A program made the position numbers and the translations under genes. A stretch of 63,997 nt of DNA, counting the filler, from Vezdaea acicularis (Eukaryota): the NCBI GenBank assembly GCA_026025075.1. It is 3 parts of 3 records of this genome, joined end to end, with 100 filler letters (N's around TTAATTAATTAA, not from the genome) between each part and the next. Parts side by side here need not be neighbours in the genome. Positions count along the whole stretch, not along the records: positions 28,866 to 57,405 come from JAPEUI010000171.1; 2 more parts are not named here. One strand, given 5' to 3'. Positions 5,853-57,505 of this stretch are shown here, in pieces; position 1 is the first letter of the stretch; each line of letters starts with the position of its first letter. A model generated the notes under the pieces. It was not told the origin of the DNA and made no database searches. It saw nothing but the letters and a program-made list of their open reading frames with translations.

Positions 5853-6925
5853 GCATTTTGGTCATGTGTGCGCGGGTTTGGTTTGGGTTAGGGTCTTCGT
5901 ACTGCTTGATACCGGTAGATGCGAATGCGTTTGGTTTTAGGTCGACGAGAATGAAGACATTAGCTTTTCGTTTATTGATCGTCATGCCATGATAGCAACT
6001 ATTGCGTTATCCTTCACGTGATGTCGTAAGCTTGACTTTTGCTTCATATACTACAAAGTTATTCACGTTGTCGTGATTATTGATCTATGCTAAACTATGA
6101 TGCCCACTACCATATGGATCACGAAGGAGATGCAACGAACAGAAGAGCAGAAGTAATCAGAGGGTTCTCTGGGGCGCTGGTGAGGAGTGGTTGGCTATGC
6201 CATCATCAAGCATGTTCGAGCAAGGATATTTGAGGGTGGGGTAGGATTATCATCATCGTCGTGGAACCCACCGACCGACGTTTGAAATCCGAGGGCGGCC
6301 CCGGCCACTGAAGTTTCATCATGTCGGGCTTCTCTCCGTGTTACTAGATGGACGTCGTGATGATGTTTGAGATCCAAACATATATGGCGCATCCATCGAA
6401 AGCGTCGCACAAACCCACCAGGCGATGCGCCCAAACTGTTTTTGACTGCGGACTCGTGCCCGAGAGACAGCCGCGGGCTGCACGATCTATATATGAATCA
6501 TGATGTTGATTTGCTCGTTTCCAACCCGATGCTGCAGTGGCAAGGACCGTGCGAATCACCGTGCCATGCGCCGTTGCGCTACTGTAAGCATCGCGGGGGG
6601 GCGACCCCAATGTTTTCGATGGCTTAGCGTGGCCTTATCGTCGTAAACCCTTTTTCCCTTTTTCCCTTACTCCCAACATCAACCCGCTACCGCTCCGCAC
6701 CTTTTCCTCTTCTCTCAACCTCCCCGCTTTCTTCGTAATTCTTTTGGGCATCGTCCCAGTCGCTCGTTTGATAAAGCTTTCGTGTTTGGGATCTTGTCGT
6801 TGGGGTGGTTGTTCGTCGTTGTCGCTTTGACTTCTTACCGTACGCGGACGGCTGCAGACGGTACTTGAGCTTTCGGATAGCACCATCACCAGCAAGAAGC
6901 TCCCACTTGGGCTGGATGAATGCAA

Positions 6926-9222
6926 ATGGGGAAACGTACGTCAATCTTTCTCAGAGTGGTCACTTGATGATGCAGGCAACTAATCAACGGCCTATTAGAT
7001 CGATGGGGCATCGTTATTGACGCGGGTTCGTCAGGCTCTCGAGTATACGTCTACAGATGGCTCGACAGCGCGAAGGCTCGAAAGACTGCCTCTGCAAAGC
7101 AATTGGGGAGTCTACCAGAGCCGGTTACAAAGAAGAAGTGGACACACAAGATACATACTGGTACGTTGACGTGCTGCAGCGCTCTCCTCGCCCTGCCTTG
7201 GAGATAAATCCCGCGCGGCTACTGAGACTTCACTATTTAGGCATATCAACTTTTGGTGATAAGCCCGACCTTGTTGGCCCGGATCACCTCAAAGAGCTCT
7301 TCGACCACGCTTTAGGAATAGTACCAGAAGATGCAGTGTCCGACACGCCGATCTTCCTGCTTGCTACAGCTGGGATGCGGCTATTGAAGGAGCAGGCTCG
7401 CAAAGAACTACTCCGCCAGATCTGCACCTACGCTCGCCAGAATACTAAGTTCTCTCTCCCAGACTGTAATCTTCATATCCAGGTCATACCTGGTGAGACC
7501 GAGGGCCTCTATGGATGGATTGCTGCGAACTATCTACTCGGGGGATTCGATAACCCCGAAGACCATTCACATGGCAAAGGCCATCACACGTACGGATTTC
7601 TTGACATGGGCGGCGCTTCTGCACAGATAGCATTTGCGCCAAATGCGACAGAAGCCGAAAAGCATGCGGAGGACCTGCAGCTCTTGAGGATGCGGACGAT
7701 TGATGGAGCTGCCTCAGAATATAAGGTCTTCGTCACAACGTGGCTAAAGTTTGGTATGAATGAGGCGAGAAGACGATACGTCGAGGCATTGCTAGAAGCT
7801 AGTCATGCAGCAGACGCCGGCGAACTGCCAGATCCATGTATGCCCTCGGGATTGAGCAGAAAGCCAGACGGAACAGTTATCCCGACAGACTCGAAGGACC
7901 TCGATGATGTGCCCTTTCTAATAGGGACAGGCCGATTTAAGGAGTGTCTGCGGCAAACATATCCGCTTTTGGGAAAAGACGCGCCATGTGAAGATACTCC
8001 TTGCTTGTTAAACGGCGTTCATGTCCCGGCAATCGACTTTGACGTGAACCACTTCGTTGGCGTTTCGGAATATTGGCATACCACTCATGAAATATTCGAG
8101 ATGGCGCACAAGGATAAAGCATACGACTTCAATACCTATCAACAGCGTGTGATGGAGTTTTGTAGCCAAGACTGGGAAACGATAGCCGCTGGCGTAAAGG
8201 AGCACAAATGGGGCAAGAAAGTCGACGAGCAATCGGCAGCAGACATGTGCTTCAAAGCCTCATGGCTGATTAACATGCTCCACGAGGGCATCGGCATACC
8301 TCGAGTAGGTCTCGAGGACACCAAACTCGGCGATCACAACGGCACTAAAGCTGTCCTCGACCACGCTAAAGACAAAGGTTTCCTCGACCCCTTCCAAGCC
8401 GTTGACAAGATTAAAGATACAGAGGTAAGCTGGACCCTTGGCAAGATCGTCCTGTATGCCGCCTCGCAGGTTCCTCCAGGCAACGATTCCGTCCTCCCCG
8501 TCGGTTTCGGCAGCAATGTTCCTGGCATCCCTCCAGACTTCCAATACGCCGGCTCCAAACACGCCCCAGTCCCTACCGACCCCTTCGACGACACCACTGA
8601 AGACGTCTCCGACCACGTCATCGACGAAATCGATGAGATTCAGAAATCCCTATTCCCGACCACCTCCCGGCGCACCCCAGGCTTCCTACTCTTCCTCCTC
8701 ATCCTCTTCATCGCCATCTACCTCCTGCTCGGGCGCGAGCGGCGCTCTCGGTTGTGGCGGCGCTTCACCCGCGGCGGTGGTGGCAAGCGACGACGCTTCT
8801 TCGGCGGCAAGCTGTTCGGACACGCGGCTGGACCGAGCTACGAGCGCGTGCTTGAGAGCGGGGAGGCGGCCAACGCTTTCGAACTTGCGGATGCTGATAG
8901 CGACGAGAATGAGCACTCGGATTCAAGTGATGGAACGCGCGTGGGCAGGAGCTCGGGTTGGGCCACTCCCAGGATCTCGAAGCCTGGCTTTGAGAATGCC
9001 ACCGGCTATTTTGATAATGTCGTTAGTCAGGGCCAGGGTCTCGGGTTAAGTCCACCCCCATTAGGGGTACTGAGTGGGAATGCTATGGATAGGAGTGGCT
9101 TGGTGGTGAGGACGGATAGCAGAGAGCGCTTGGCGCCGGGCCCAGGGGCCAGTGGCAAGAGAAGTAGAACAGGGAGTCCGAGGAGAATGGGACTGAGTCC
9201 ATTAGTGACGGATATTGATTGA
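6926..9222 (+). CDS. YND1: Golgi apyrase / nucleoside diphosphatase (GDA1/CD39 family)
   Basis: Spliced N-terminus gives ACR1 (IVIDAGSSGSRVYVY); also LLATAGMR, GETEGLYGW, LDMGGAS and SWTLG. Single C-terminal TM helix with a long cytosolic tail, as in Ynd1. Introns approximately 6936-6998 and 7161-7240. Confidence 0.9.
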
Positions 9223-9632: not shown

Positions 9633-10691
9633 TTATCCCATATTCATGGTATTCCCGGCCCCCCTCGGATTCGCCTCGGTGAACTCATCCCACTGCCTCG
9701 CCTTCATCGTGGCCTCGTCCGCCTTCGCCACATCGTCCTCGTCCACCTCCTCGCGCACTCCGCTAGCTTCGCCCCCGCCGTCGATAATGCCTCCGCGCCG
9801 CCGCTCCTCTTCGAGATACTCGTCGATTGTCATGGTCGGCAGGTTGTGCCCAGGCCGGAATACGCCCTGTTGCAGGCGCGTGCGGCTGTCGAGAAGTGTG
9901 AAGGGCTGGAGGGGTTTGCCGCTTTTGTCGAGGAGTGGGCCACCATTGAGGAGGGAGGAGAGGGGTGGGTCGAGGCGTTCGGAGTATGCGCCTTCTCTGT
10001 TGCGGTCGCGGTCGTCTGAGGTGGAGGTTTGGGCAGGTGGGAGCGGGGCGTCGGCGGGGGGAGCCAGAGAGAGGATTTGGAGCTCCTGCGCGATGCTCTC
10101 GAGGGCTTGGAAGGACTGATGTGTGGCGAGGCGTAGGCTGTGCAGGTGTAGTTCGCGGAGGGCTTCGTCGTCGGTGTCGAGCGCGGCGGGGTTACTGGAT
10201 AGGTGGGCGAGTTTGGCTTTTAGGTCTTTTTCTTCGCGGAAACGGTTTATTTTTGCGGCGCGCCGGAGGGCGGGGTCAGAGGGGGCGGTGGAGAAGGTGA
10301 GGGGAGAGGTGAGGTAGGTGGTGTAGAGGTGGGCGGAAGGGGGGGAAAGGAGCTCGTAGGTGGAGAGGGTGGAGAGGAAGGTTGAGTAGAGGTTTTGGGA
10401 TGTTAGGAGGGTGGCGCGGCGGGAAGGGGAGAGGCGTTGCAGGTGCAGATTGGCAAGGTGATGATCGATGAGGAGGTATTGTAGGTCGGAAGAGGAGATG
10501 TCATCGGCGGTCTCGTTGGGGCTGAAGAGGGCGAGGTTTGCAACGAGCTCGCTGCATGCTTCGTAGTTTGATATCGCCGAGGCGAGGGTACTTTGGTAGC
10601 TGGAGCTGTTGGTGTCCCACGAATTTTCAACTTCTTTGCGGAGCGTCTCAGCGGTCCGGTAAACGGACTTGAGCGTGCGTGGTTCTGACAT
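9633..10691 (-). CDS. TAP42: Tap42/alpha4 PP2A-associated TOR-signalling protein
   Basis: LFSPNE, RAAKINRF, GVFRPGHNLPTMTIDEYL and KARQWDEF-NPRGAGNTMNMG motifs. Single exon starting at MSEPRTL. Confidence 0.93.
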   Translation of the reverse strand: MSEPRTLKSVYRTAETLRKEVENSWDTNSSSYQSTLASAISNYEACSELVANLALFSPNETADDISSSDLQYLLIDHHLANLHLQRLSPSRRATLLTSQNLYSTFLSTLSTYELLSPPSAHLYTTYLTSPLTFSTAPSDPALRRAAKINRFREEKDLKAKLAHLSSNPAALDTDDEALRELHLHSLRLATHQSFQALESIAQELQILSLAPPADAPLPPAQTSTSDDRDRNREGAYSERLDPPLSSLLNGGPLLDKSGKPLQPFTLLDSRTRLQQGVFRPGHNLPTMTIDEYLEEERRRGGIIDGGGEASGVREEVDEDDVAKADEATMKARQWDEFTEANPRGAGNTMNMG

Positions 10692-11586
10692 ATTGGTGGG
10701 ATAGAGTGGTAGTGTAAAAGTGGGCAGAGGAGAGGGGAGAATGATATACCGGAAAAACCTTTTCGCCGAAGTGGGATAGTCTCGGTTCTGCTTCGCCCTG
10801 CTATCTCTGCCATCGCTCAGTAACCACCTCAAAGATTGGGTGGAACCAGCATCTATCAAATGAGGTGTTTGAGTACCTGTTCCACTTCTGTTATGTTCTC
10901 CTGAGCCTCACCTTGTTCACAGAGTGTGAACTAGCCAAGGGCAAGCGTCGAACCCTTACCAGGAGAACATGGCACAAGCTTAAGATTGAAACTCCGTACC
11001 TTTGTACTTTACTGACCTGTGTCTTTAATTGGATAGAACGATATGTTTCAGTTGTGTTTACGGTACGCAAGTATGATGATCATCCCGTGACACTGTGTCC
11101 AAGGGCAAAACGTCATTGTGTCTGCTTCTTGAGTTTATCTATTGGTTTCTTTAGCCTTCGTTCAAAAAACTTCTTGCTGCGTAACAACACGTTCAATTTC
11201 TCAGTCCACTTACCTTGAATTCTTTACAATCTTGCGCAAGATTGTCTCCTTTCTCTAGCTAGTGAGCTCGTCTCAAGAATACTTACTTCCGTTGTTCCTC
11301 ATTTGCCAAATCCACACTGGACATAAGTTCACCACATGAACGGAACACCATAATACTCTCAGACAACAGTATAGGAGTACTGCAACAAGTATAAACATTG
11401 GAGCTCCTCTTCAAGTCAATCACTGCTGTGCCGTTAAAAGAGAGCACTCTCTCTTGAACAGAGCACTAGATCTGTCAAAGGTCAGAAAAGATCCGTCAAG
11501 CAAGCAGCTGTCGACTTCACCTGGCTGTTCTGTCACTTCAATTGCATTTGTTTGAAAAGTGCTAGGACCTTAGATTTGAGCCGCCA

Positions 11587-14500
11587 ATGTCGGGTGACAA
11601 TAACAATATGTCGATGAACGTGTTGCAATTGAACAAAATATCCCCGGTTCAACCAATAGATCCAAAAGAACCAGATGTCTCGGCAAAGGCCATGGAGGTC
11701 AAAGGCATAGGCGCTCAACCGCCCGTCCAAGCTGCTGCGGCTGAGCGACTGAAGTGTAGATTGGATCGTTTTCGGACGCTAACACTCGCTCGTGGGGGAC
11801 AGCTGGAGCCACAGCTTAGGGCCATAGAGGAATTGAATGTAGCAAAAACGGAGAATTTTGTTTTTTCCGGCCATCTCGATAATGGCAAGAATGAAGAAAC
11901 AAGAAAGTGCGCCGAGAAGCAGACTCAAGATCTGGCTAAGCAAGGGCAGAGTGAATCGGACCAGTTCGGGGCAACGAAAGTTACTTGTCGGGGAGCCCCT
12001 GAGGTGTGCTCGGAAGATAAAGCGAACTTACCTGCAGTGAAAGCAAAAGAGCCCGCAACTTTTGGCCTCCTGGAGAGCCACAATAGCCAACAACCGGAAA
12101 CAGGAGTCACACCTCTGGCTGTGCCCACAAGTAGCACACCAGACCAGTTGCAAACTCTAGCAAACGCCTCGGGCAACATTCTTGAGGCGCATGTTGGAGC
12201 TAAAATAGGGCTAGCCGTACAGAACACAGGGAAGCTCACAGAAACAAATTCTCCCAACAGTCATACCAATCACCTTACGGAGTATCCCCCAACAATTCCT
12301 AACCAGAAGCTGAGCAAGAAACGCAAGAGAAAGAAAATGTCAGGAAGAAATGCAGGCGACGCCGAAGATTGGCAGTCTTCTGATGAGGAGAGCGAATATG
12401 ATTCGAGTGATGAGCCCGAACCTACAGCCAAGCCATTATCAGGCCTCACGCAAGAGTCGCTGGTGAAAGAAAAATTTGTGTCATGGTAAGCGTGTCTCTT
12501 TCATCCCCAAGCGCTTTAGATTTAACAGGCTCTCAGGGTGGAATCGAACGAAATGAAGCAGCTCTCCGAGGAAGACCGTCTCCAGGAACTATTGGAGCGA
12601 CCTGTCGAGGATGAGCGGGCAACCACAAGCTATCTTATGGCGCAACAGGAGTCAGAGCTGCTCATTAACAAGCCTCGAGAATATCAACTTGAGCTTTTTG
12701 AAAGAGCCAAGTTTGAAAACACTATTGCAGTCCTAGATACTGGATCAGGAAAGACCCTTATAGCTGTAATGCTCCTAAAGCACACCATCGATAAAGAACT
12801 CGAACGCAGATCATCAGGAGAACTCCCTCGAATTTCCTTCTTTCTCGTCGATTGTGTTACCTTAGCCTTCCAGCAATTTGCCGTGATTGAGCGAAACATC
12901 GATCAGAAAGCAGATCGTTTTTGTGGTAGTTCGGGGGTCGATTTGTGGTCGAAGGAAACGTGGGACACGCACTTCTCGCAGAACATGGTCATCGTCTGCA
13001 CCGCGGAGGTGTTGTATCACTGTCTCATGCATTCATTCATCTCGATTGAGCAGATAAACCTTTTGATATTTGATGAGGCACACCATGCTAAGAAAAATCA
13101 TCCCTATGCTAGGTAAGCCGTTCACATACTACAATTGTGATTCGTCATTTACTAACTACTATATAATAACACTAGAATCATTAGAGAATTCTATCTTGAG
13201 GCCAAGGATAGTCGTAAACGCCCTCGGATCTTCGGAATGACAGCGTCTCCTGTGGATGCCAGAGTCAACGTCTTGGAGGCTGCCCAGTAAGTTCCACCAG
13301 ATAGTTCCGACCCCCGCGCTGACCATTTCAGGGAGCTGGAAACACTTCTCCATGCCCGGATTGCGACGACAACTGATCTTGGTCTCCTTCAAAGATCAGT
13401 GCATAAGCCCGAGGAGCTCAACGAATACTATGATCCCCTTCCTTATCCCTTCGAGACGGCGCTGTGGTGGGAGTTAAGAAAAAGTTTTGGCCACCTCAAA
13501 TATCTGACTAAGACTTTCCAATTTGCTAAGCATGCAAGCTCTGAGCTCGGCTCTTGGTGTAGTGATCAAGTTTGGTCTTATGCCCTTGACGAGGAAGAGG
13601 CAATGAAATTAGAGCGCACGCTTGAAAGGAAGTTTATGGAGCGTGGCGATGGGGATCCGGAGCTGTTGAACACCGATCTGAGGCAGCTCGGACAGATAAG
13701 AGATATAGTCATGGCACACCCGTTCAGAGAACCCAAAGTCGACCTAAACGACCTCAGCTCAAAAGTATTGAAGCTCCACGAGTGTCTTCAAGATCGCTTT
13801 GAGGCACCAACTGAGCAGAAGTGCATTGTATTCGTGCAGCAAAGATATACGGCTAAGCTACTGGCTGACCTCTTTTCGAGGATTGGGGCGAGCAAACTCA
13901 AGACAGGGACGTTAGTAGGAGCGGGCAATGGAGATCTAGGTGATCTTAACCTTTCATTCCGAAAGCAGGTGTTGACCTTGACGAGGTTTCGGAAGGGAGA
14001 GCTGAACTGCTTATTCGCGACTTCTATCGCTGAAGAAGGTCTTGATGTGCCTGACTGCAACCTAGTCGTAAGGTTTGATCCATATCGCACTACAATTCAA
14101 TACATGCAATCTAGAGGTCGTGCACGCCAGGCAGGCTCGAAGTACATCCATTTAATAGAGAATGGTAACCTGGCCCATCTCAGGACTATCCAGGATTGTC
14201 GGTTTGGTGAGGTCGCTGTCAAGAATCTCTGCAATTCTCTCCCGGAAGATCGATTACTTAGAGGCAATGATTATGGTCTCGAAGAAGCAGGGTTCTGGGA
14301 TAAGGGCAACCAATCCTATCTCATACCTTCTACTGGCGCCCGATTGACTTACGGTTCTTGCTTGGCTGTTCTATCACATTTTGTAGGATCACTTGTGAGT
14401 TATACTTCTATACACTCAAAGCTCGACTGAATTAAATTGTTATTCTAGGGGCATAAGTCTGAAGGAAACCTATCCATCGACTATGTCGTAAGAAGGAACG

Positions 14501-17244
14501 GAAACGAATTCATCTGTGAGGTCGTCTTGCCAGAGCAGTCACCGATAAGGTCAGCTGTGGGCCGCCCAGAGCCTCGAAAGATTACAGCGCGAAGAGCTGC
14601 TGCTTTCCAAGCATGTGTGCTTCTCCGTAGGCAAAAATATCTGGACGAGAACTTGGTACCTACCTACCAAAAAACAAAGCGAATGTTACGCAATGTGAAT
14701 GCAAGCCTTGCTCTGAAGTCTAAGGCCAAGTCTGAATATGCTCGGCGAGTTAAATCAGACTTCTGGAAGATCAATGCTGGCACCATTCCAGAGGAACTGT
14801 TCCTGACGGTAATTTATATACCAAATGTCGCTAACCTCAGTCCAATTGGGATTCTCACCAGGAGTCGGTTTCCGGACATTCCCTGGTTTGATCTCTATCT
14901 CAAAGAGAAGGAGACGTCTATAGTGCAAATTCACAGTCTTTATTACAGTCTCGCAGTAACGGAAGAGTTACTGAATGATATCACAACCTTCACTGCTCTT
15001 TTCTTCGATCAACTCTTTAGAAAAGTCTACGAGGAAGATGTGACCCTAAGAGGATACTGGATTGTGCCAATATACGAACACCTGCAAGGTCTTGGGGATG
15101 GAAAACCTTTCCCGCTCATTGATTGGTCGACCTTGAGCTCTTGTATTAAGAAACCCACTCTCGAGTGGGATGTGAACACTCCCGATGCACTCTTCGAAGG
15201 AAAGTTTATTACCGATCCATATAATGGGGGGAGTCGATATATAACAAAAGGAGTACGCCACGACCTTAGACCAAGAGATCAAACCCCCGCGGGAGGAATC
15301 AGCAATGTTCTACGAAAGAAGCTGAATTCCGGCGGCCGCTCGGCGGAGGAGAAGGCTCAGATGACTCAGATAATCGAACAATGCAACAGCGTCTTCAAGA
15401 GGTCTGCGAAGCGGTCGACCTTCATGAGCGACGACCAACCCATTATCCAAGCAGTAAGGGTTAACATTACGCGTAATTGGCTCGATGTGCCGTCTAAGAA
15501 AGACCGGGACTTCGTCACGGACGCGTACATATGTCCAGCTTCACTAAAAATCTCCTCAGTAAGTTTTCAGGCTTTTAAAAATTCTTAACAGGCAAGCTGA
15601 CTGGAGAAGTTTCCTGTCACTTTCGCAGCTATGGGCTTTCAGCTGCCATGTATAATGTGGCGTATCGAGTCTTGTCTGATCGCCCTAGACGGCTTCCGGT
15701 CGTTGAACCTCGACGTAAAGCCAGAATTTGCGTTAGAAGCATTAACGCGAGACTCTTGCAATATGGGAGAGCATCGTGGTTCGCAGCTTGATTATCAACG
15801 GGGAATGGCTAAGAATTATGAGCGTTTGGAGTTCTTAGGAGATGCGTTTCTTAAGATGGCAACATCGATCGCCATCTTTGCCAAATTTCCTGCGGATGCT
15901 CCTTTTGACATCCATTGCCATAGGATGGTCATGATATGCAACAAGAATTTGTTCAAAAATGCTGTTAAAACCGGGATTTTCGAATATATACGAAGCTCGG
16001 AATTCGTTAGGTAAGTTGATGGACTCATCATTGAAAGTATGAACTATGCTGAGTTTGATCATAGACGGGAATGGTATCCAGAAGATTTGAAGCTGCTTCA
16101 TGGCAAAGGCGCCGGTCAAACTCCTGGGACCGATACAGCAGTGAAGCGAAGCCAGTCACTCGCAGATAAGACTATTGCCGACGTCTGTGAAGCGATGATT
16201 GGAGCGGCGTACCTTTCAAGGCCAACCCTTTATAACTTCGACAACGCCGTCAAGGCCGTGACCGCTATGGTAGGGAACGACACGCACACGGTGCAACGCT
16301 GGGGCGACTATCAAAAAAAGTACGAAATGATTGCATGCCTGTTGGTCAAACCTTCAGCCAGTCAGCTTGATCTACTCATGCAAATTGCGAGAAAAGATAA
16401 TTATGTCTTCAGAAATGCAAGACTTCTCCGATCGGCCTTCCTCCATCGCTCCTACGCCTATATCTACGAGAGTATCCCTAGCTACGAGCGCCTCGAAAGT
16501 CTGGGGGACGCCTTGTGGGACATGGTCTGCGTAGACTGGCTGTTTAAGACATACCCAAATCGGGATCCTCAATGGCTCACGGAGCATAAAATGGCCATGG
16601 TAGCCAACAAATTCCAAGCAGCTCTCTGCGTTCGACTTGGCTTTAATAAACATATCCGTTTCACCGGAGATTTGCTTCGTGTCCAGATAAGCAACTACGT
16701 CGACGAACTTGTAGAAGCGGAGGACCGCGCAAAGGGCTCCCCTGACTACTGGAACGATGTCAGATCACCACCAAAAGCCCTTGCTGACGTCCTTGAAGCA
16801 TATGTTGGCGCCCTCTTTGTTGACTCTAAATTTGATTACAGGCAGGTGGAGCGCTTCTTTAATGATCACGTTCTGCCGTACTTCACAAACATGGACCTCT
16901 ACGATAGCTTTGCAGAGGACCACCCAACCACCCGTCTCTCCAACCTTCTGCTGAAGAGCTTCGGCTGTATCAACCATCGTGTCTGGGCCCACGAAATTGC
17001 ATGTGAAGACCCGACTACCAACTACAACATGGCTGGGGTGTGGGTGCATGACCAAGTCATCGGCGAAGGGAGAGCTCCCTCGAGCAAGAGCGCGAAGATC
17101 GGAGCTAGTAAGGATGCGCTGGACAAAGTTAGGGCGTTGACTCGGGATGAGTTCAGGGAGAAGTACGGATGTGATTGCAAGGAGGAAGATACCAAGGCGG
17201 TTCTGGCTGGGGAAAAGGAAGTGCCGCTTGGCACGGCGATCTAG
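11587..17244 (+). CDS. dcl1: Dicer-like protein 1 (DExH helicase, HelicC, Dicer dimerisation dsRBD, PAZ region, 2x RNase III, dsRBD with Zn motif); about 7 exons; start either 11587 or 12337
   Basis: [33 protein letters not shown] and QSRGRAR helicase motifs. RNase IIIa [10 protein letters not shown]...ADVCEA; RNase IIIb YERLESLGD...ADVLEA. C-terminal YGCDC is typical of the fungal DCL1/Dcr1 clade. GT-AG introns begin near 12486, 13112, 13287, 14395, 15559 and 16011. Confidence 0.95.
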
Positions 17245-19417: not shown

Positions 19418-20118
19418 ATCCCATTTGGTATATCCTTCATACGTAGTAGCTACCGCCAAGAGATACGAAAGTCAGCGCAAAAGTTTCTCAAGCTAGCAAG
19501 AACAAAATTGGATTGTTGAGGTAGTATCATAAACTTTCAACATTAAGCATCAGATGCCCAAGACTTCGTCAAGGGCGTCAGAGGATTGACAGATATGTGG
19601 TTTGTATAATCTTTTAAGGATCCTCCAGAATGCGCATCAAATGATCAACTTACAAGTCAAGTCAGCGTCAACCGTAGTCAGGGACTCCTAGGCATTTTAT
19701 ATATTGCCATTGTTAGAGATATTTGAGAGCCAAGTTTTGGAGGGTCGTCAATCTTGGCGAATCGAAGGCAGGCACAGCCGAGCCGGGGTTATCTTTAAGA
19801 CTATGCCCCCTTCGGCTAGTGGCTTCGGACCCTTATCGGCTGTTTTACCAATTGGAGGGGTCAATCGCCTCCGCCTACGCCATCTCTAAACTATCAGCCA
19901 ATCTGCTTGGAATAGTATCTGACATATTCTTCGGCGCAACGAAGAATATGAACAGAACTATATCCCTTTCGTTCACTATCTTCGATCCCCTTGGGTAAAC
20001 CCAGGAGTCTCTATGGCAAGATCTGGGAACTACGCCGACGTCTGCAGAAGGCGTATTTCCTACCACAACCTCCCCGCGTCAAACCACCAAGTATTGTCAA
20101 AGGGCGTGACTCATCAAG

Positions 20119-22282
20119 ATGCCTGCAGATTCAGGAAACTCTCAACCGGACTCGGTGCCTGGACAACCATCGCGGCGCCTGAGCTTCTCCTACGATATAA
20201 TAGGGAGCTCCTTCAGCTCGCGCGAACCTACGGCCCGCATGGCTATCGCTAGGGATTTACGGGACTTGTCCGATGACTATGAAGATGAAGAAGAGGCAAT
20301 TGATTCAACAGAAAGCGGTATCTCTAGAAGTATGCCTACGCCTGCGCCGCTCAACCGAGGCAGTTCATATCATGCTAGGAGTATAATTGCGCTCGGTCCA
20401 AGATCGACCTTGATCCCCGCACTCCAAGTCCCTGAAGGCGATTCTTCGGACCAACAAATGAACGATTGGGAGAGAGAACATCTTAGAAAGGACGAAAGAA
20501 ACCTCCTTAGAGACAATTCTTGGCTCCCCCCGAAAGACCCGAACCGGGCGCAATCGGACGACGGCCTTGGGGGCGTTATAAGGCGCGTTAAATCCATTGG
20601 AGACAGCTCTGCCGCAAGGGCAGTCTCACGTCGCTTCAAGTTCAGCGAGACTTCCTCAACATTGAGGGATCCTCAGTCCCCTGCTTTTGGTGCTGCGCCC
20701 GACTCGACGGACAGCGGACCTCCCTCGGAGAGCTCCCCTCTTTTAAGCAAAAAGCGCAGTGGTAGACCGGATTCACCCACCGCGGAAGAAGTTTTCAAGA
20801 AATGGGATGAAGCTATTGCAGCTGGCAGAATACAGACGACGTGGAAACGTGAAGCCAAGACGCTGGCTGGATACTCCTATCCATTGATTGCAACATTTCT
20901 CCTTCAATATTCTTTGACCGTTGCCAGTATATTCACAGTAGGGCATATAGGGAAACGTGAGCTGGGCGCCGTCAGTTTGGCTAGCATGACTTCAAACATC
21001 ACTGGATACGCTATTTTTCAAGGTCTTTCCACCAGCCTAGATACGCTTTGCGCACAAGCCTATGGATCAGGGAGAAAGAAGCTTGTGGGACTGCAAATGC
21101 AGCGTATGGTTTATTTTTTATGGGTCTGTACCATCCCGATAGGGATTGTCTGGCTCAGTTCTACTGCTATACTAGAGAAGATAGTCCCTGATTATGAGAC
21201 TGCCCGCTTGGCGGGAATATATCTTAAAGTGCTTTTAGTGGGAGCTCCAGGCTACGCGGCGTTTGAAAGTGGGAAACGCTTTATGCAAGCTCAGGGACTG
21301 TTTGGAGCTACATTGTGGGTTCTGCTGATATGTGCTCCTCTCAACGCCTTCATGAATTGGCTGTTTGTTTGGGTACGCTGATTGCCCTCATTATGTTCAT
21401 GAACGTTTGCTGACTTGGTATGAAGCATTTTGGATGGGGCTTCATTGGTGCACCCATAGCCGTTGCGGTCACAGACAACCTCCTCCCCATCTGCCTCGTA
21501 CTATACGTCCGGTTCATAGACGGCGGGGCATGCTGGGGCGGTCTTACCAGCCGCGCTTTCCAGAACTGGGGCCCTATGATTCGGCTTGCTCTCCCTGGGC
21601 TCCTGATGGTTGAAGCCGAATTCCTTGCGTTTGAAATCTTGACACTTGCTGCGTCGTATTTCGGCCCAGCTCATCTTGCAGCCCAGAGTGTGCTAGCTAC
21701 CATCACAAGCATCACATTTCAAATACCGTTCCCAATCAGTATTGCCGCAAGCACACGTATCGCGAACCTGATCGGTGCGACGCTTGTCGGACCAGCGAAA
21801 ACGAGCGCGAAAGTCGCATTGGTGGCGGCGAGCATGGTTGGAATATTCAACGTGATATTGCTTTCTTCATTGCGAAATGTAATCGCAAAGCTATTTACGA
21901 ATGACGAGGAAGTTATCGCACTCGTTGGGCGGGTTCTACCCCTCTGCGCTGCGTTCCAGCTCTTCGATGCCTTAGCTGCGAACTGCAACGGCATTCTACG
22001 TGGATTGGGAAGGCAGGAAATCGGAGGATATACTAACTTGTTCTGTTACTACGTCGTAAGTTCATTTTCTATAGCGAAACAAGTGCCCTTTACTAATTTG
22101 AATAGGTTGCCATGCCAGTATCTTTCGGCGCCGGCTTTGGACTTCATTGGGAGCTTCTGGGGCTCTGGGCAGGGCCAGCGTTGGCCCTCGGACTTGTCGC
22201 TGCCATTGAGGCGTTCTTCATATTCCGTACAAACTGGGATAAGGTCGTTGAGGCAGCATCTGCGAGGAATGAAGCTGCGTGA
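20119..22282 (+). CDS. MATE family transporter with long hydrophilic N-terminus; 3 exons
   Basis: ELGAVSLASM, SLDTLCAQAYG, EAEFLAFE, STRIANLIG and FQLFD motifs. Introns approximately 21373-21425 and 22056-22105. Ends ...ARNEAA-stop. Confidence 0.92.
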
Positions 22283-22697
22283 AAGCGCTTGCTCTGGCTG
22301 TTTAATGTTCTGTCCATACGATAAGAGATGCTATTACATTTGGATATATTCTTTGAAAGCCCAACATATGAACTTGATACCCACGAAACATTACTATGTA
22401 AGAATCAAAAGCATGATTACATTTAGACGGGGGTGAAATTCGGAAGGGAGAAACCGTATTGCCGAACCACAATCCGGAAGTGCTTCGGTTGCACATGCTT
22501 AGACCCCACTCTCTTGGAAAACATCTTCCACATAAAACGGTTCCAATTTCTGCTCTCGACATATAGGGAGGCCGCTATGCGCCGTGAGCATATAATTATC
22601 ATGCTGCCCTTTTTATGACAACTGTATAATACCTTTTCCTAAGGCTACAGACCCTCCCCCAATTCGTGACTTGGAGCATTCTTCCTACAGCTCCGCC

Positions 22698-25435
22698 ATG
22701 GCTCCTTCCAACCGTCCGCTCTCGCCGACTACAGCTCCAGACCTCGAAATTCTTGGCGAGCAAGTGACAATACACCCCACTGGATATGTCGAACCAGACC
22801 ATCAAGGTGAGCCGAACAGGGACGAGACCATTCTGGGAGAACGGACGCGATTCTCCGACTCCCCATTCGACTTTCTGCGTGAGATCAGCCTACATGTCTC
22901 AGGTTCTGGATGGCGCGCATACGAAGGTTTCATTGGGCAGCCGATATACTACCCTGGCTTCACAGACAACATGAAAGCCGCCGTCCTCTCGACGCCAATG
23001 CTTCAAGCAAAGATACGGCAGTTGGCGCAGAAAAGGGTGGAGGTTGAAGAGCAGCAAGGGTTGATCAAGAAGGATGATCCAATGTATGCGAGCAAGAAGG
23101 CAAAGAGAATGGGAAAGATAGTGGAGAGTCTACTGGAGGTCTCTGAGAAGATGACGGATGATATGATATGCAAATTTGAGAGTAAACGGTTCATCAGAGG
23201 AGCGGCGTATTTGTGTAGTCAATTGTTGACAAAGGCTTATCATCAGGGTAGGAAGCCTTTTAAATAAATCCAATTCGTTCACAAGAGGATCTAATTTCTA
23301 ATTTCTATCAGGAATTCACGTGTCCAGCGATGAAGTACTTCATCTAAAAGCTGTTGCTGAGAAAGCTCAAGCGGAGAAACAATCCATCGTCTTCCTTCCA
23401 TGTCATAGGTCTCATGTTGATTATGTCTCTTTGCAACTTATCTGCTATCGCCTCGGCCTGGCACTGCCTACCGTAGTTGCTGGTGATAATCTTAATTTTC
23501 CGCTGGTCGGGCAGTTCCTTCAAAATGCTGGTACGTTCTAGCCTTTGCTTGACTATAGTTCAGTCCATTTACTCGGTTGTATAAGGTGCTATGTATATAC
23601 GACGAAGCTTTGGCAATGATGCATTGTATACTACTCTTGTTCAATCATATATGGATGCGTTACTGAAAGGTGGCTTCAACATCGAATGTTTTATTGGTAA
23701 GTTTTCTCAGATGCTGGTCCTCTTTTCGCTATCTTGCTATATCTAACAATTTTTAGAGGGCGGACGTTCACGCACTGGGAAACTATCCCCTCCCAAGTTT
23801 GGAATTCTTAGCTTCATTCTAGACTCCATAATATCTGGAAGAGTCGAGGACACAATAATATGCCCAGTCAGCACACAGTACGACAAGGTAATCGAGACAG
23901 AGGGCTATGTAAATGAGCTCTTAGGAACCCCAAAGAAGAAGGAGAACCTCATGGACTTCCTCTCAGCCTCCTCAGTACTTTCCCTAAAGCTCGGCCGGGT
24001 TGACGTACGCTTCCACGAACCATGGAGCCTCAAAGAATTCATTGTCAAGCAACAAAGCCGCTTCAACAACATTCCTGGCCAACTAGACCTCACAGAAATC
24101 AACCGTCCCGAAGTACGAACGCGACTCCTCCGCACCCTAGGCTACAAAGTCCTGTCTGATATTAATGCCGTCTCGGTGGTAATGCCCACTGCGCTTGTTG
24201 GGACCATCCTACTCACTCTGCGTGGCCGCGGCGTTGGCTACCCCGAGCTCGTACGGCGCGTAGACTGGCTATGCACAAGGGTACGCGCGAAAGGAGGGCG
24301 AGTCGCGCACTTTGCCGGTGCTCCTACGAGCGTGGTCGTCGAGCGGGCTCTCGAAGTGCTCGGCCCTGAGCTCGTCGGCATGGTGTCTGGACTGCCCGAA
24401 GACACCTTCTATGCCGTTGACCGCTTCCAGCTCTCGTTCTACCGCAACATGACGATCCATCTTTTCATCTCAGAGGCGCTAGTAAGCGCAAGCATGTATA
24501 TGCGCGTCAAGCAAGGCGGTGCGCCGGATACGCAGCGGATATCATACGAGGAGTTGCTGTCCCAGATCGCCTTCCTCTCGCAGCTTTTCAGGGGCGAGTT
24601 CATCTTCCCCACTGAAGGCCTAGCGGTGAATCTCCACTCAACCCTGCTCGGTCTCGAAGCCGATAACGTGATAAGAGTCGTCCGCAACGTCCCCTCCTCT
24701 TCCTCTCCTACGACCGCCGGAACCCCCATCTCCATCGAGCTCAGCGAGGCGGAACGTGCGTGCGGCAGGGAGAACTTTGATTTCTACTGTTTCTTGATCT
24801 GGCCATTCATTGAAGCCAGCTGGCTCGGCGCCGTCTCCCTAATGGGCCTAACTCCACCCCTACTCTCTCCTTCATCCCCAAACCAACTCTCTAACCAAAC
24901 TCAACCCCAAACCCAGCCCGCCCATCCCCCTTCTTCCTCCTCTTCCTCCTCCCCCTGGCTCAGCGCAACCCACGTCCAAACCCTCGCTCAACTCCTCGGC
25001 AAAACGCTCTACCACCAAGGCGACCTCTCCTACTACGAAGCCGTGAATAAAGAAGTCCTAAAGAACGCCTACGACCGCTTCCACGACGAAGGCATCCTGC
25101 TCATCTCCAAACCCCGCGATTCACGCTCTCCCGCCACGCTGCGCCTAGCGCCCGACTGGACCCCCCAGCGCGATCCTCTTACGGGAAAATTGCGAGCGGG
25201 TGGCCGGCTCTGGGCCTTTTGTGAAAGGATTGCGAGGAGTAGGCGCGAGGGCAAGAATCGCAGGGATGGTGCGACGGTTAGTACGAGGGTGCTTGCGCTT
25301 AGTGAGAGGGTTATGGGAGAGCTTTTTAGGGGCGAGGCGGGGGTGGGGGTGGCGCAGGGAGAGGGGGAGGGTGAGGAGAGGGTCGTGCAGAAGAGGCGGC
25401 CGCATCGTGGGATCGAGAGTGGTGCGAAGTTGTGA
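22698..25435 (+). CDS. Glycerol-3-phosphate / DHAP acyltransferase (PlsB/GPAT/DHAPAT family); 4 exons; C-terminal AKL
   Basis: Acyltransferase block I (LPCHRSHVDY), block II (GAMYIRR) and block III (FIEGGRSRTGK) assembled across introns at approximately 23249-23311, 23531-23585 and 23697-23756. Confidence 0.9.
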
Positions 25436-26066: not shown

Positions 26067-28063
26067 TCAGTCGACTAGCTCAAGATCCATCGGTTCCTCC
26101 GTCGGCGCACCAAGGCGCGGCTCGTCTGGCATTTGTCCTCCGCTCTGACTCCCTCTTTCACGCTTCCCATCACCATCGACTTCATCGCGGTGTTCCAACT
26201 CCCGTAGCTCGCGCTCCTTACCGATAAGAGCGGCTCTGATGGTGCGCATTTCGGCTTCGAGCTCGCGCCGCCGCTGGGCCCGTCGTCGGCTGTTGTCGAC
26301 GACTAGGAGCTCGGGAGCTATGGGGGTGTTCCTCGCCGCATCTGCCGGCACGTGCTGGTGTGGTTCGGGTGGGTGTGGCTGGTGCTGCTGATGGGAGGAG
26401 AGAGAAGAGGGATTGAGCAGGTGTTGGATTGAATTTAGCTGGCGCGATGAGTTTGGCGTGTCAGAGCGATAGGGAACATGTTCCGTGAGTGGCTCGGCGG
26501 CGGAGCGGCTGTGCGAGCGTTTCCTACCTCGGCTGTCAGGGGAGTTTGCGGCTTGTTGGTCGGGGTTGAGTTGGTCTGCATGCGCTATGGAGTGGACATA
26601 CGGCTGGATGTCTGTGCTGGGATGGAGAAGTGACGGCGTGTTGGTACCTGAGGTGGGGCCGGTATACCCTGTGAAATCCACTGCGAGGCTGCGGCTGCCT
26701 TGCGCGTGCGATGGAGAGTTGTGCGGACTTCGATTTGGTTTTATACGTGCCAGTGCCGCCACTGGGTCGGGGCTCGTGGATGACACAGGACCATCACCAC
26801 CAGTCTTAAGGTTTGAGTGGTCATTTTGTTGGGGAGATGGCGCGTAGGGGGAATCGGCAAGGGCAGGTACGACACGTTTGCGGCGCTTGATGATAGATTT
26901 TTTCATGGCGACAGGGCGTTGCACGCCGTGCAGTTTGTGATATAGACCTTGCAAGTTGTTAGTATACTATATGCACAATGACCTGAATGGGGAAAATATG
27001 TACCGCAGGCATTACATATCGTATGGCCACTCTCGTCTCGCCGCCAGAGTGGCGTGATGGTTGTGCCGCAGTTTTGACACGCCACGACTACGGTGGAGTT
27101 CTGGCCTGGGACCTGTATGTCACGCATATCTGCCGATACAGCACCCTCGTCATCGTGCTGGTTGCTCGCGGACTCGTCCTCGCTGTTCTCATGCGTTTGC
27201 GGGTTCTCGCCTTCGGACTGATTCGTTGAGCTCGTGAGGTTTATATTAGCGGACTTCGCAACGCGGTTGTTGTAAGCCGGGCAGCCCGAACAGCCTGCTG
27301 CCCCGCCCGTACCGTTGCATTTTCCACCGCCAGGGCAGGAGCCGTGCTGGACTTGATCGGCGGAGACGTATGTATTGCCTACAGCGGTTTGGGCAAGGGC
27401 GGGAGAATTAAATGGGGAAACGCTGCGCTCCTGCGCTCCTAGAGAGGGAGGTGGACGCTTGAGATTCGTCGGCCTGGACGTATTGCGCGCTTTTTGATAG
27501 AGGCCACAAGCGTTGCAGATGGTAGCACCCTGAGGAGAGCGGCGCCAAAGGGGGGTTCGTGTCGTTCCGCAGTTGCTGGAGAAGATTAGACATGGGATTT
27601 CAAAGTGTTAATAAATAAATGGATCTCGTTTTGTATAGAAAGGGTGACAGGCCTAGCCTCGGCATAAGAAGGGTGCTCACCTGCAGATTTGGCCGGATGT
27701 TGGGGTACCTATCGAAGGTGACGTATATGGTTGATCTGACCGTTGGTCCATCGACATTGAGGAGTCTCGACTGTGTCGGTACTGGGAACTTGGTGTGGCG
27801 ACAGACTTTGTTATGGGAGTCCCGCCCACGACACCTTCCATCTCGTCTCCCTGTCCAATGGTAGTCTTCGACTGTAGTGACATGCTCTCGAGGCCGTCTC
27901 CACCAGATGCGTTACTAATCCTCCGGCCTTGTGCGTGGCCTACTAGATGTGCGGCAAGTTCAAGATCTTCCCTCGACGGCCCTGTTCCTGGTGATGGAAT
28001 GTTCAAGGACACTGGTTCTTGCGGCCCTTCTGCCTGGAGATTGTGGGAGAGTACGGCACTCAT
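26067..28063 (-). CDS. sreA: GATA-type iron/siderophore repressor (SreA/SRE/Urbs1/Fep1 family); 3 exons
   Basis: Two GATA fingers ([26 protein letters not shown] and [26 protein letters not shown]) flank the Cys-rich iron-sensing segment [28 protein letters not shown]-terminal coiled coil. Confidence 0.95.
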
Positions 28064-28765: not shown

Positions 28766-28865
28766 NNNNNNNNNNNNNNNNNNNNNNNNNNNNNNNNNNN
28801 NNNNNNNNNTTAATTAATTAANNNNNNNNNNNNNNNNNNNNNNNNNNNNNNNNNNNNNNNNNNNN
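28766..28865. other. Assembly gap / contig linker (Ns with TTAATTAATTAA at 28810-28821)
   Basis: 44 N + 12-nt linker with stops in all six frames + 44 N; same layout as the second gap. Confidence 0.98.
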
Positions 28866-31842: not shown

Positions 31843-33665
31843 CTACTTAGCCAACGGCCGAATATTCCTCTCAACATCCACGGTTTCGAACACGGGACCA
31901 GCATAATCCGCGCGTCCCTCGACGGCAACAGCGATGATATATTCCGTCTCCCATGCTCCGACCCAAAGATATGTGTCCTGCACCTTGCATCCGTTGCGCC
32001 AAACTTCCACGTCGTGAAGAGTATCCCCCCAGGGCGTTCCAGGAGCCTCGTCCGGATTTGATAAGTCATAATACTCGGACGATCCTCTGGGAAGCGGGGC
32101 GCGGACTCGCCTGAACTCGACTTCGCGAAGCCAGGGAGCTAGCAGGGCGTCACCCGTCATCTTCAGATATGCTTCTTTGAGGGCCCAGTATGTGTAGAAG
32201 AGGCGGAGGGTATCGACTTCGTCGGCCTTGGAGGACTCCGCTTCGTTTAGAATAGATGTGAGGTCTGCGTCCGAGAAGACGTCTTCGTACATTTTCACCC
32301 AGTCGCGGACGCCCACTTCTTTGATCTCCTTTATCTCGTTTCGCTCTCCAACGCAGACGATATCGACGCCTACCTTCACACCCCGGCCCGTATCGGCGAC
32401 CAAGGCAATAAGACCGGCTTGGTGCGAAATATTAAAGTCGAGCGTCGGAGCATTCGGCGATGGCGGTTGATAGATTGGTTTCTTCTTCTCTGAAGCTGCC
32501 AAGGTGATATCCGACCACGGGATGTGGAGAAGCTTCGCAACAGCCGCATACTTCAGTAGGTGAGAGGCCAAACTATGTTTCTGATCCCGATGCTGGACAT
32601 ATGCTAAGATAGAGCGCTGGGTCGCGGCAGGAAGCAGCCCTAGTAGCTAGGATTCCAGAGTCAGTCCCGCTGCGAGACAAGGGTGAGGCTTGGTCCCACA
32701 TCTGCAGGCAGGCTTTCCCCGTTCCACAGCTCGCGCGTGTCAACAAGCCAGCGTAGTGTTGAGTCCTTCGACTGGGGCTCCTCATTCCGCCGGGCCAGTA
32801 CCGAGGCGCGTACCTGCGCAAGCCACCACGCGTGGATCCTGGCGTCTCCGGTAAGTTCAGGGTGGAAGCTTGTGCCAAACACATTGCCTTGACGCACGGC
32901 GACTATGTCTCCCTCGCTTTCGTCGAGCGTCAGTGATGCTGTACTGGAAAGCCGATCCGCTCGCCCAGGTAGGATACCCATGACTTCTACTTTTTGTCCA
33001 GTTGCTGCAGTGGCCGACGAACCCTTTGGCTGAAGAGAGGGAGCTATCACCGTCTCAGGTTTCTCCCCCTCTTCAACCTGCTCGCCCGACATATTGGGAA
33101 GCAGCTTTTCTACCACTGGGGCACGTATAAAAATTCCTCGAAACGGCTCTGACGGGCTGTCTTTATCTGGATCGGCAGAGGCGAGGAAGGGCAGATCCAG
33201 GGGTGCTTCGAAGCTCTCGACTTGACGTCCAAAATGATTTCTATTCACACGAACGTCGAGCCCACCAACTAGGTCTTGGCCTCCGCGCTTTGTGCGGTTT
33301 GCGGACTCAGAGAGGAGGATCAGACCAGCGCATGTGCCGAAAGTAGGGTTGCGAAGGACCCTAGAAATGGAAGGTTAGCTCAGAACTTCATGGACAGAGA
33401 CGCCAGAGTACTTTACGAATTCTCGCAGTGGCTCGAGGATGTTTGATCTTTCAGCTACGAGAGCCATTGTGGTGCTTTCACCGCCAGGTATGATCAATGC
33501 GTCACATTGGGCGAGCTCGGTGGCGTGGCGCACTTCTAAGAAATTCCATTCTTGGACGCTGTTTGAAGGAGTCTGTGAGGCTGCATTGAGGAGTCTGAGA
33601 TGCTCTACAAAAGCACCTTGTAGAGCAAGCACTCCCACGGTTATGGGACTTTGTTTGGTGGCCAT
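31843..33665 (-). CDS. Predicted Pdx2/SNO glutaminase - Sfp-type 4'-phosphopantetheinyl transferase (NpgA/Lys5-like) fusion, 572 aa; exons 33665-33412, 33360-32700, 32646-31843
   Basis: Pdx2 motifs VGVLALQGAF, IIPGGEST, FGTCAG, RNHFGRQ, FIRAP and SFHPEL. Same frame continues with no stop and no Met into the PPTase N-terminal motif LRWLVDTR. After a 53-nt intron come SLASHLLKY, FNISHQAG, VGVDIV and YWALKEAYLKMTG. Confidence 0.82.
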
Positions 33666-34435: not shown

Positions 34436-36186
34436 ATGTCACTCTCAATACCAAATGCTCCCAATAGCGGACTTTTCAAGCAGGGTTATCAAAAGTAAGT
34501 CTCACAGATTCCCTAGCTTAGATTGAACCGATCTGATCTCATATTATAGCTACGAGTCCGAGGATGGCGCCGTCCTACGCAATATTGATGCTTGTCGTAC
34601 CATTGCCCAGACAGTACAGACATCCCTTGGTCCTTATGGTCGGAATAAGATTGTCATCAACCATCTTCAGAAGATGATCCTGACTTCAGATGCGGCTACA
34701 ATATTACGAGAATTAGACGTAGTCCACCCCGCAGCAAAATTGATCGTGATGGCAAGCCAGCAGCAAGAAGCTGAGATGGGTGATGGCACAAACTTGGTTA
34801 TCGTACTCGCAGGGGAAATGCTCAAGAAGGCGGAGGAGCTCCTACGGATGGGCCTAAAGGCGAGCGACATAGTGCAGGGCTATGAGAAAGCACAGAAGTT
34901 CGCTCTAGAGCAGCTCGATGAACTCGTCGTCGACAAAGTAGAAGATATGAGGTCGCAGGAGGAGCTAAGCAAAGCGATAAGAACAGTGGTTGCCAGCAAG
35001 CAGTCCGGCACCGAAGACTTCCTGGCTGGCATGGTCGCAGAAGCCGTGTTAGCCGTCTTGCCAAAGAACCCCCTAAACTTCAATGTGGACAATGTCAGGG
35101 TAGTAAAGATTATGGGGAGCAGTCTAGAGCAGAGTAAGGTGGTGAAGGGTATGGTATTCGGTCGGGAACCAGATGGTAATATCCCAGACCTGATTTTTAT
35201 GACAAAACATCTAACGTGGTTTAGGCTCGGTCAAGAAGGCAAAGAAGGCTAAAGTCGGCGTCTACTCATGCCCCATAGATATCTCACAAACTGAAACAAA
35301 AGGTACGGTGCTTCTGCATAATGCAAAAGAGATGATGGATTTCACCAAGGGAGAAGAGAAACAGCTAGAGGGGATCATTAAGGAGCTTCATGACTCGGGA
35401 ATACGCGTTGTAGTTGCGGGCGCCACTGTTGGAGAACTCGCTCTTCACTATCTCAACCGGTATGGAATTCTTGTCATCAAGATTCTCTCGAAATTTGAAC
35501 TGCGGCGATTATGTCGGGTCGTAAGCGCTACGCCCTTAGCTCGTCTCGGAGCACCTATGCCAGATGAGATGGGGTCGGTGGACATTGTAGAGACACTGGA
35601 GATTGGGGGCGATCGAGTCACTGTGTTCAGGCAGGAAAACGATACAACGAAGACCGCGACTTTAGTCATTCGAGGAGCAACACAAAATCACCTGGACGAT
35701 ATTGAGAGAGCGGTGGATGATGGGGTCAACGTTGTCAAGGCTATCACGCGCGATCCACGGCTCGTGCCCGGAGCCGGCGCCGCGGAGATGCAACTTGTGG
35801 AACGCATCACCGCTTATGGAGAACGCACTTCGGGTCTGGCCCAGTACTCGATCAAGAAGTTCGGCGAAGCCTTCGAAGTGATCCCAAGAACGCTTGCTGA
35901 GTCGGCAGGCTTGGATGCGACCGAGGTTCTCTCAAGATTATATACCGCGCATCACAAGAAAGACGAATGGACTGCTGGTGTGGACATAGAGAACGAGGAC
36001 GGGACAGGAGTGTTGGACGCTCAAGACGAAGGCATCCTAGATCTGCTGGTTAGCAAGAGCTGGGCTATCAAGCTGGCTACAGAAGCTGTGCGCACAGTCT
36101 TGTCGGTGGATCAGATCATCGTTGCTCGTCAGGCAGGAGGCCCCAAACCACCAGGCCCAAACCCAGGGTGGGATAATGAAGATTAG
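34436..36186 (+). CDS. CCT8: T-complex protein 1 subunit theta; 3 exons
   Basis: MSLSIPNAPNSGLFKQGY N-terminus, TSLGPYGRNK, MGDGTN and VDQIIVARQAGGPK. Introns 34495-34549 and 35176-35224. Confidence 0.96.
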
Positions 36187-57405: not shown

Positions 57406-57505
57406 NNNNNNNNNNNNNNNNNNNNNNNNNNNNNNNNNNNNNNNNNNNNTTAATTAATTAANNNNNNNNNNNNNNNNNNNNNNNNNNNNNNNNNNNNNNN
57501 NNNNN
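57406..57505. other. Assembly gap / contig linker (Ns with TTAATTAATTAA at 57450-57461)
   Basis: Same layout as the first gap; truncates the genes on both sides. Confidence 0.98.

Follow-up and report, generated by a model that had tools for sequence, protein, structure and literature searches.

We analysed a 63,997-nucleotide (nt) stretch of DNA from Vezdaea acicularis (assembly GCA_026025075.1; hereafter the window), in which three parts of three records are joined end to end. Within the part that comes from JAPEUI010000171.1 (positions 28,866 to 57,405) we identified a gene in which the coding sequence of the glutaminase Pdx2 runs in frame into that of an Sfp-type phosphopantetheinyl transferase (PPTase). 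The fusion is real at the level of DNA, a conclusion that we hold with high confidence. Judging from the genomic DNA, its expression as one polypeptide of ~63 kDa, from an mRNA spliced as modelled below, is likely. As an overall explanation we consider it quite probable that two genes have truly fused in a Vezdaea-type ascomycete, in an event restricted to this lineage, with one three-exon gene encoding a bifunctional Pdx2-PPTase protein of 572 amino acids (aa).

Pdx2 is the glutaminase subunit of pyridoxal 5′-phosphate (PLP) synthase and supplies ammonia to Pdx1. PPTases load carrier domains, for example those of alpha-aminoadipate reductase, polyketide synthases (PKS) and non-ribosomal peptide synthetases (NRPS); NpgA and Lys5 act in lysine and secondary metabolism. 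In the proposed protein, residues 1 to ~276 would form a Pdx2/SNO class-I glutaminase, joined through a linker of ~10 residues to an Sfp-type PPTase of the NpgA/Lys5/AASDHPPT kind at residues ~287–572.

Gene structure and the Pdx2-PPTase junction

The gene lies on the minus strand, with its ATG start codon at 33665-33663 and a TAG stop codon at 31845-31843. Three exons of 254, 661 and 804 nt add up to 1719 nt, that is, 572 aa and the stop. The parts of the gene are as follows.

33412..33665, minus strand: exon 1, 254 nt; Pdx2 residues 1-85, PGGEST motif included; Pfam SNO 66 bits
33361..33411, minus strand: intron 1, 51 nt, GT..AG, phase 2; CTAAC branch site at 33378-33374
32700..33360, minus strand: exon 2, 661 nt, no stop; the rest of Pdx2, the linker and the first PPTase motif; Pfam SNO 99 bits
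32757..32786, minus strand: junction (linker NEEPQSKDST), residues 277-286; out-of-frame ATG at 32785-32783, run of four C (C4) at 32777-32774
32647..32699, minus strand: intron 2, 53 nt, GT..AG, phase 0; CTGAC branch site at 32664-32660; in-frame TGA at 32663-32661
31843..32646, minus strand: exon 3, 804 nt including the stop; PPTase residues 307-572, with FNISHQ (376), GVDIV (398) and WALKEAYLK (459)

In the numbering of the 572-aa protein, the other motifs used below begin at residues 93 (GTCAG), 250 (FHPE) and 287 (LRWLVDTR). The N-terminus encoded by exon 1, MATKQSPITVGVLALQGAF, is the usual fungal Pdx2 start and is collinear with a Pdx2 homologue (P0020). Excision of intron 1 yields ...EFVK|VLRNPTFGTCAG, in agreement with homologues (...EFVKVHRNPTWGTCAG) and with the NCBI model. 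Excision of intron 2 yields ...ESLPAD|LLGLLPA..., again as in the NCBI model; this intron is supported because the product is collinear with other PPTases, and the joint is gapless against all 20 of those compared. A preceding sequence-only reading of this DNA had proposed an intron at 32647-32699 and a length of 572 aa, both of which we reproduced exactly; intron 1, absent from that reading, is required to reach this length.

The gene upstream is a divergently oriented TCP-1/CCT chaperonin subunit gene (34527-36183, plus strand), which would share with the fusion gene a promoter region of ~0.9 kb.

Exon 2 encodes, without interruption, the C-terminal helix of Pdx2, then the linker and then the PPTase motif LRWLVDTRELW, so that the stop-free passage from one domain into the other described in the sequence-only reading is borne out. 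The junction reads ...WWLAQVRASVLARRNEEPQSKDSTLRWLVDTRELW..., and the stretch spanning the linker, which is hydrophilic, reads ...NEEPQSKDSTLR... No promoter-sized non-coding DNA separates the two domains. In-frame methionines occur only at residues 1, 67, 175, 212, 424 and 468, and the sole ATG of the linker is out of frame, confirming that the PPTase lacks an in-frame ATG of its own, as had been claimed. Since no in-frame methionine is found between residues 212 and 424, an intact PPTase has no start codon of its own and can be produced only as part of the fusion.

The boundaries of stand-alone relatives fall at the same place. Ordinary Pdx2 proteins end 5–25 residues past the WWLxQV helix, whereas the fusion runs on into a second enzyme: when the 220-aa product of exon 2 was compared with 2853 Pdx2 representatives (E ≤ 0.001), none of the best 150 aligned past residue 199 of the query, and only two of these 150 (P0010 and P0105) exceed 400 aa. 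Stand-alone PPTases (n = 20) begin 3–20 residues ahead of the RW..DTR motif; that of Trichoglossum, for instance, begins MATHNLIRWLLDTRELW. Because the ends of stand-alone Pdx2 proteins and the starts of stand-alone PPTases fall there, the end of Pdx2 and the start of the PPTase can be placed within ~10 residues of each other in a single exon.

We also considered, as a candidate intron at the junction, 42 nt bounded by GT and AG (GTACGC...CCCCAG), and rejected it as too short, devoid of a branch site and in frame anyway.

In an AlphaFold2 (AF2) model of mediocre quality (mean predicted local distance difference test score, pLDDT, of 66.3), a helix is predicted at residues 258-276, before the linker; the predicted linker (residues 279-300) has pLDDT below 50, and the PPTase half is mostly at 70–95. 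Low confidence of this kind in the linker fits a flexible tether but is no proof of one, and we use the model only to describe the linker. The alignment used for AF2 was A4; another, A2, in which MAFFT had aligned the two families jointly, superposed them and was discarded.

The two enzyme halves

Over the whole 572-aa protein the SNO profile scores 173 bits (Pfam cut-off 27). Residues 1 to ~276 correspond to a full-length fungal-type Pdx2 with the triad of the Pdx2/Sno1/PdxT family (SNO, PF01174), and the product of exon 2 is 63–71% identical to its best fungal relatives. The columns of Cys95 (in GTCAG), His251 and Glu253 (both in FHPE), which are C10, H166 and E168 of P0003 in alignment A1, are invariant among 14 fungal Pdx2 sequences; these residues form the Cys-His-Glu catalytic triad of class-I amidotransferases. 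Matches in the PDB comprise 12 distinct PdxT/Pdx2 sequences with E-values down to 3e-30, and the solved chains include 2nv2, 2iss, 2abw and 4ads. The Pdx2/SNO domain had been described as complete from these same Cys and His/Glu motifs, and both the profile score and the conserved triad agree with that description.

The PPTase half shows the two-subdomain architecture of its family. Pfam scores for exon 3 are 62 bits for AASDHPPT_N (cut-off 27) and 43 bits for ACPS (cut-off 25), and the corresponding values for the 572-aa protein are 61 and 41 bits. Like the Sfp-type PPTases NpgA/CfwA, PptA, Lys5 and AASDHPPT (PF22624 and PF01648), fusion residues ~287–572 can be aligned along their full length with 20 fungal PPTases that stand alone, which together with the PPTase half of the fusion make up alignment A3. 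Over these 21 rows, the columns of F376, N377, S379, H380, G398, D400, W459, L461, K462, E463, A464, Y465 and K467 are invariant, and those of R288, W289 and D292 are conserved throughout or to at least 90%. The residues of FN.SH, G.D and W.LKEA..K presumably bind Mg2+ and coenzyme A. In the PDB, this half matches two human AASDHPPT sequences (structures 2cg5 and 2byd) with E-values of ~5e-12. The closest named PPTase, that of Trichoglossum hirsutum, is 39% identical by BLASTP over exon 3 and 45% identical in A3; the next-best PPTases as a group (Trichoglossum hirsutum and metagenome proteins) are 39–40% identical, and the Trichoglossum hirsutum protein is a stand-alone one. What sets the Vezdaea enzyme apart from other Sfp-type PPTases is that it has no initiator methionine of its own, its N-terminus being joined to Pdx2. 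Taken together, the Pfam scores, the conserved catalytic and motif residues and the PDB matches indicate that both enzymes are intact.

Relatives, gene order and competing explanations

The spliced translation is identical at 572 of 572 residues to the NCBI model KAI9852687.1 ("hypothetical protein M1824_001817 [Vezdaea acicularis]"). That entry, along with open reading frames (ORFs) of a second contig, was drawn from the cluster that contains the exon-3 ORF at 90% identity. The second contig (Logan/ENA, 19,141 bp) represents another genotype and carries two prokaryote-style ORF calls, P0290 and P0169, with seven amino acid changes altogether. P0290 (195 aa) corresponds to the exon-2 ORF and spans the junction in the same frame (...VLARRNEEPQSKDSTLRWLVDTRELW...; ...VLARRNEEPQSKDSTLRWLVDTRELWNGESLPAD...), differing from the window at one of 195 residues; P0169 (242 aa) corresponds to the exon-3 ORF and differs at six of 242, the start residue being set aside in both comparisons.

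The presence of SNO and PPTase domains in one protein was not observed in any of 15 Pdx2 relatives of 386–2000 aa, nor among the best 150 of the 2853 Pdx2 representatives. A Pfam rescan of 11 long relatives revealed no PPTase domain, and the one long PPTase relative (at least 469 aa; P0004, 538 aa) contained no SNO domain. A search of the ESM Atlas with exon 2 returned SNO clusters only, and one with the whole protein gave no usable match. The 15 long Pdx2 relatives carry GST, kinase, peptidase S10, IP5 2-kinase, Pdx1, SAICAR-synthetase and other domains. Like the Vezdaea protein, they join Pdx2 to an extra domain, as with SOR_SNZ (Pdx1) plus SNO in P0019 or SNO plus SAICAR synthetase in P0105; unlike it, they have no PPTase domain, and in the Vezdaea gene no predicted intron bridges the two genes. 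Many long Pdx2 models are probably annotation merges across such a predicted intron.

Public fungal Pdx2 models P0005-P0018 range from 390 to 1180 aa and include domains of unrelated neighbours (GST, protein kinase, peptidase S10, IP5 2-kinase); most of them are probably merges.

A collection of open-access full texts yielded no description of a Pdx2-PPTase fusion, and Vezdaea acicularis was found there by name in a floristic paper only. In PMC12238968, the revised Lichinomycetes group Vezdaea together with the genera Thelocarpon, Sarcosagium, Piccolia and Caeruleum; NCBI taxonomy still lists the genus Vezdaea as leotiomyceta incertae sedis. The protein is a new domain architecture made from two well-known enzymes, restricted, as far as we have seen, to the Vezdaea-type lineage.

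Gene order around Pdx2 was compared in at least four fungal-like loci (L001-L004) among 80 metagenome loci kept, none of them a close relative of the window. Their Pdx2 proteins are 49–64% identical to that of the window, and no synteny beyond Pdx2 is shared between the window and these four loci. Among the matches listed (tblastn), only the Eurotiales-like locus L002 also carries a PPTase; none was found within ~6 kb of Pdx2 in L001, L003 or L004. The two genes of L002 are as follows.

L002, ORF 3187-4494, minus strand: PPTase, 47–50% identical to Penicillium-type PptA
L002, ORFs 5038-5385 and 5386-6006, plus strand: Pdx2, ~70–72% identical to Aspergillus Pdx2

As in Vezdaea, the same two genes directly adjoin each other in L002, but there they are divergent and unfused, and each has a start and a stop codon to itself. 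With their starts ~660 bp apart, they stand head-to-head, not in tandem. The proposal of the sequence-only reading that two neighbouring genes had fused thus receives partial support: the genes do adjoin in L002, but in the head-to-head and not the tandem order, and the other three loci have no PPTase near Pdx2. That reading had also named the two genes, as pyroB and npgA, as neighbours in Aspergillus nidulans, a statement for which we found no confirmation. The passages of PMC6319467 that we read make no mention of the neighbours of npgA. The most likely origin of the Vezdaea gene would be the loss, between adjacent genes, of a stop codon, the intergenic DNA and a start codon.

Immediately downstream of Pdx2, locus L002 carries an antisense ORF that resembles a cap-binding protein.

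Several points weigh against the interpretation as a genuine fusion expressed as one protein. The support for the fusion polypeptide comes from genomic DNA. The fusion is known from one lineage only, as the window genotype (which is that of the NCBI model) and one other. Pdx2 models merged with a neighbour are common among automated annotations, which makes the NCBI model on its own weak evidence. In the AF2 model the Pdx2 half is poor, with pLDDT below 50 at residues 96-209. Finally, one base added to the C4 run at 32777-32774 would bring the ATG at 32785 into the PPTase frame and end Pdx2 at a TGA at 32742-32740.

This last point was our main worry, since a single C would yield two overlapping ORFs: a PPTase beginning MRSPQSKDSTLRW..., with Pdx2 terminating 11 codons further on. 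If the assembled sequence contained such a one-base indel, the apparent fusion would mask two slightly overlapping genes. The sequence-only reading had itself named an indel or a stop near 32760-32800 as what would overturn the fusion, and the contig of the second genotype (P0290) decides the matter: it keeps the same frame across the junction, so that an indel artefact is very unlikely and the fusion stands. It would itself be unusual for two fungal genes in tandem to overlap in their coding regions and to lack a promoter between them, and by our own estimate chance would place an ATG as well as a stop codon in the required frames within ~15 codons in ~1 case in 10. We therefore leave to a sequence or assembly artefact only the slightest probability. 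Elsewhere in the window, a Pfam analysis of 111 ORFs found split TCP-1, peptidase M48 and RNase III domains, all compatible with short introns, a pattern that speaks neither for nor against indel errors. The stretch 32785-32740 on the minus strand is one base short of two overlapping ORFs; this may be chance, at the estimate just given, or a vestige of the event that created the fusion.

It is also conceivable that the DNA is fused and yet the cell ends up with two separate proteins, or with mainly one of them, through retention of intron 2, an internal promoter combined with a non-AUG start, or proteolysis of the linker, the fusion protein being then minor or transient. The in-frame TGA 12 codons into intron 2, which would cut the protein short at 318 aa if the intron were retained, speaks for this scenario, and so does the linker, hydrophilic and of low confidence in the AF2 model. 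The structure of the gene argues the other way. An intact PPTase has no in-frame AUG from which to start, there is no promoter-sized non-coding DNA between the domains, and the first PPTase strand (LRWLVDTR, with the conserved R288, W289 and D292) is encoded 5′ of intron 2, contiguous with Pdx2. We thus regard separate products as unlikely, while leaving them some room. Much harder to sustain is the idea that the fused copy is a decaying remnant, a redundant paralogue heading for loss while stand-alone Pdx2 and PPTase proteins encoded elsewhere do the work. The PPTase half does diverge faster between the genotypes than the Pdx2 half (6/242 against 1/195 changes), but all conserved catalytic and motif residues that we checked are kept in both halves, both introns are canonical, all 572 codons are open in one genotype, and both large exons are open in the second as well. 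This makes a remnant highly improbable, and a genuine gene fusion remains the explanation that we favour.

Surrounding genes and proposed function

Several other genes could be recognised in the window. A Dicer-like gene (12526-17241, plus strand) comprises five ORFs, which between them encode helicase, Dicer dimerisation, two RNase III and double-stranded RNA-binding (dsRBD) domains; a single in-frame stop at 16012-16014, presumably within a short intron, is all that parts two of these ORFs. Two MatE-family transporter genes are found in the 64 kb, at 491-2216 (minus strand) and 20110-22433 (plus strand). Also present are a GATA zinc-finger gene (26906-27607, minus strand), TAP42 (9636-10907, minus strand), a GPAT gene (23747-25432) and a GDA1/CD39 gene (7021-9219). 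Two pairs of 44-base N runs, with 12 bases between the runs of each pair, occur at 28766-28865 and 57406-57505 and look like masked sequence, not like scaffold gaps.

For the fusion protein we propose that each domain keeps its usual job: the glutaminase would dock on Pdx1 and supply ammonia, and the PPTase would turn apo- into holo-carrier domains. The chief consequence of the fusion would then be obligatory co-expression of the two activities. Retention of intron 2, by ending the protein at residue 318, might give rise to a Pdx2-only isoform and so possibly uncouple them. In PLP synthase, the Pdx1 dodecamer binds Pdx2 on its outer surface. Because of this arrangement, up to twelve PPTase domains could be displayed on one PLP synthase particle, which would couple the formation of holo-carrier proteins (for lysine, PKS and NRPS) to vitamin B6 synthesis, either physically or by regulation, with splicing or retention of intron 2 setting the ratio of Pdx2-only to bifunctional protein. 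By analogy with known PLP synthases such an assembly can be imagined, and we rate it as a rather improbable outcome.

To our knowledge, Sfp-type PPTases of ascomycetes, which have been put forward as antifungal targets, are single-copy and essential for lysine biosynthesis as well as for the synthesis of all polyketides and non-ribosomal peptides. The Vezdaea gene suggests that a PPTase can accommodate a bulky partner at its N-terminus, as close as ~10 residues to its first strand. For annotation, it is a case in which the public record says 'hypothetical', yet both halves can be named with confidence. The fusion may be neutral, a side effect of the loss of DNA between adjacent genes, and in that case it would be a curiosity of one genus. 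It offers a test case, in a little-studied lichen-associated lineage, of whether a 'Rosetta stone' fusion reflects functional coupling or mere intergenic collapse.

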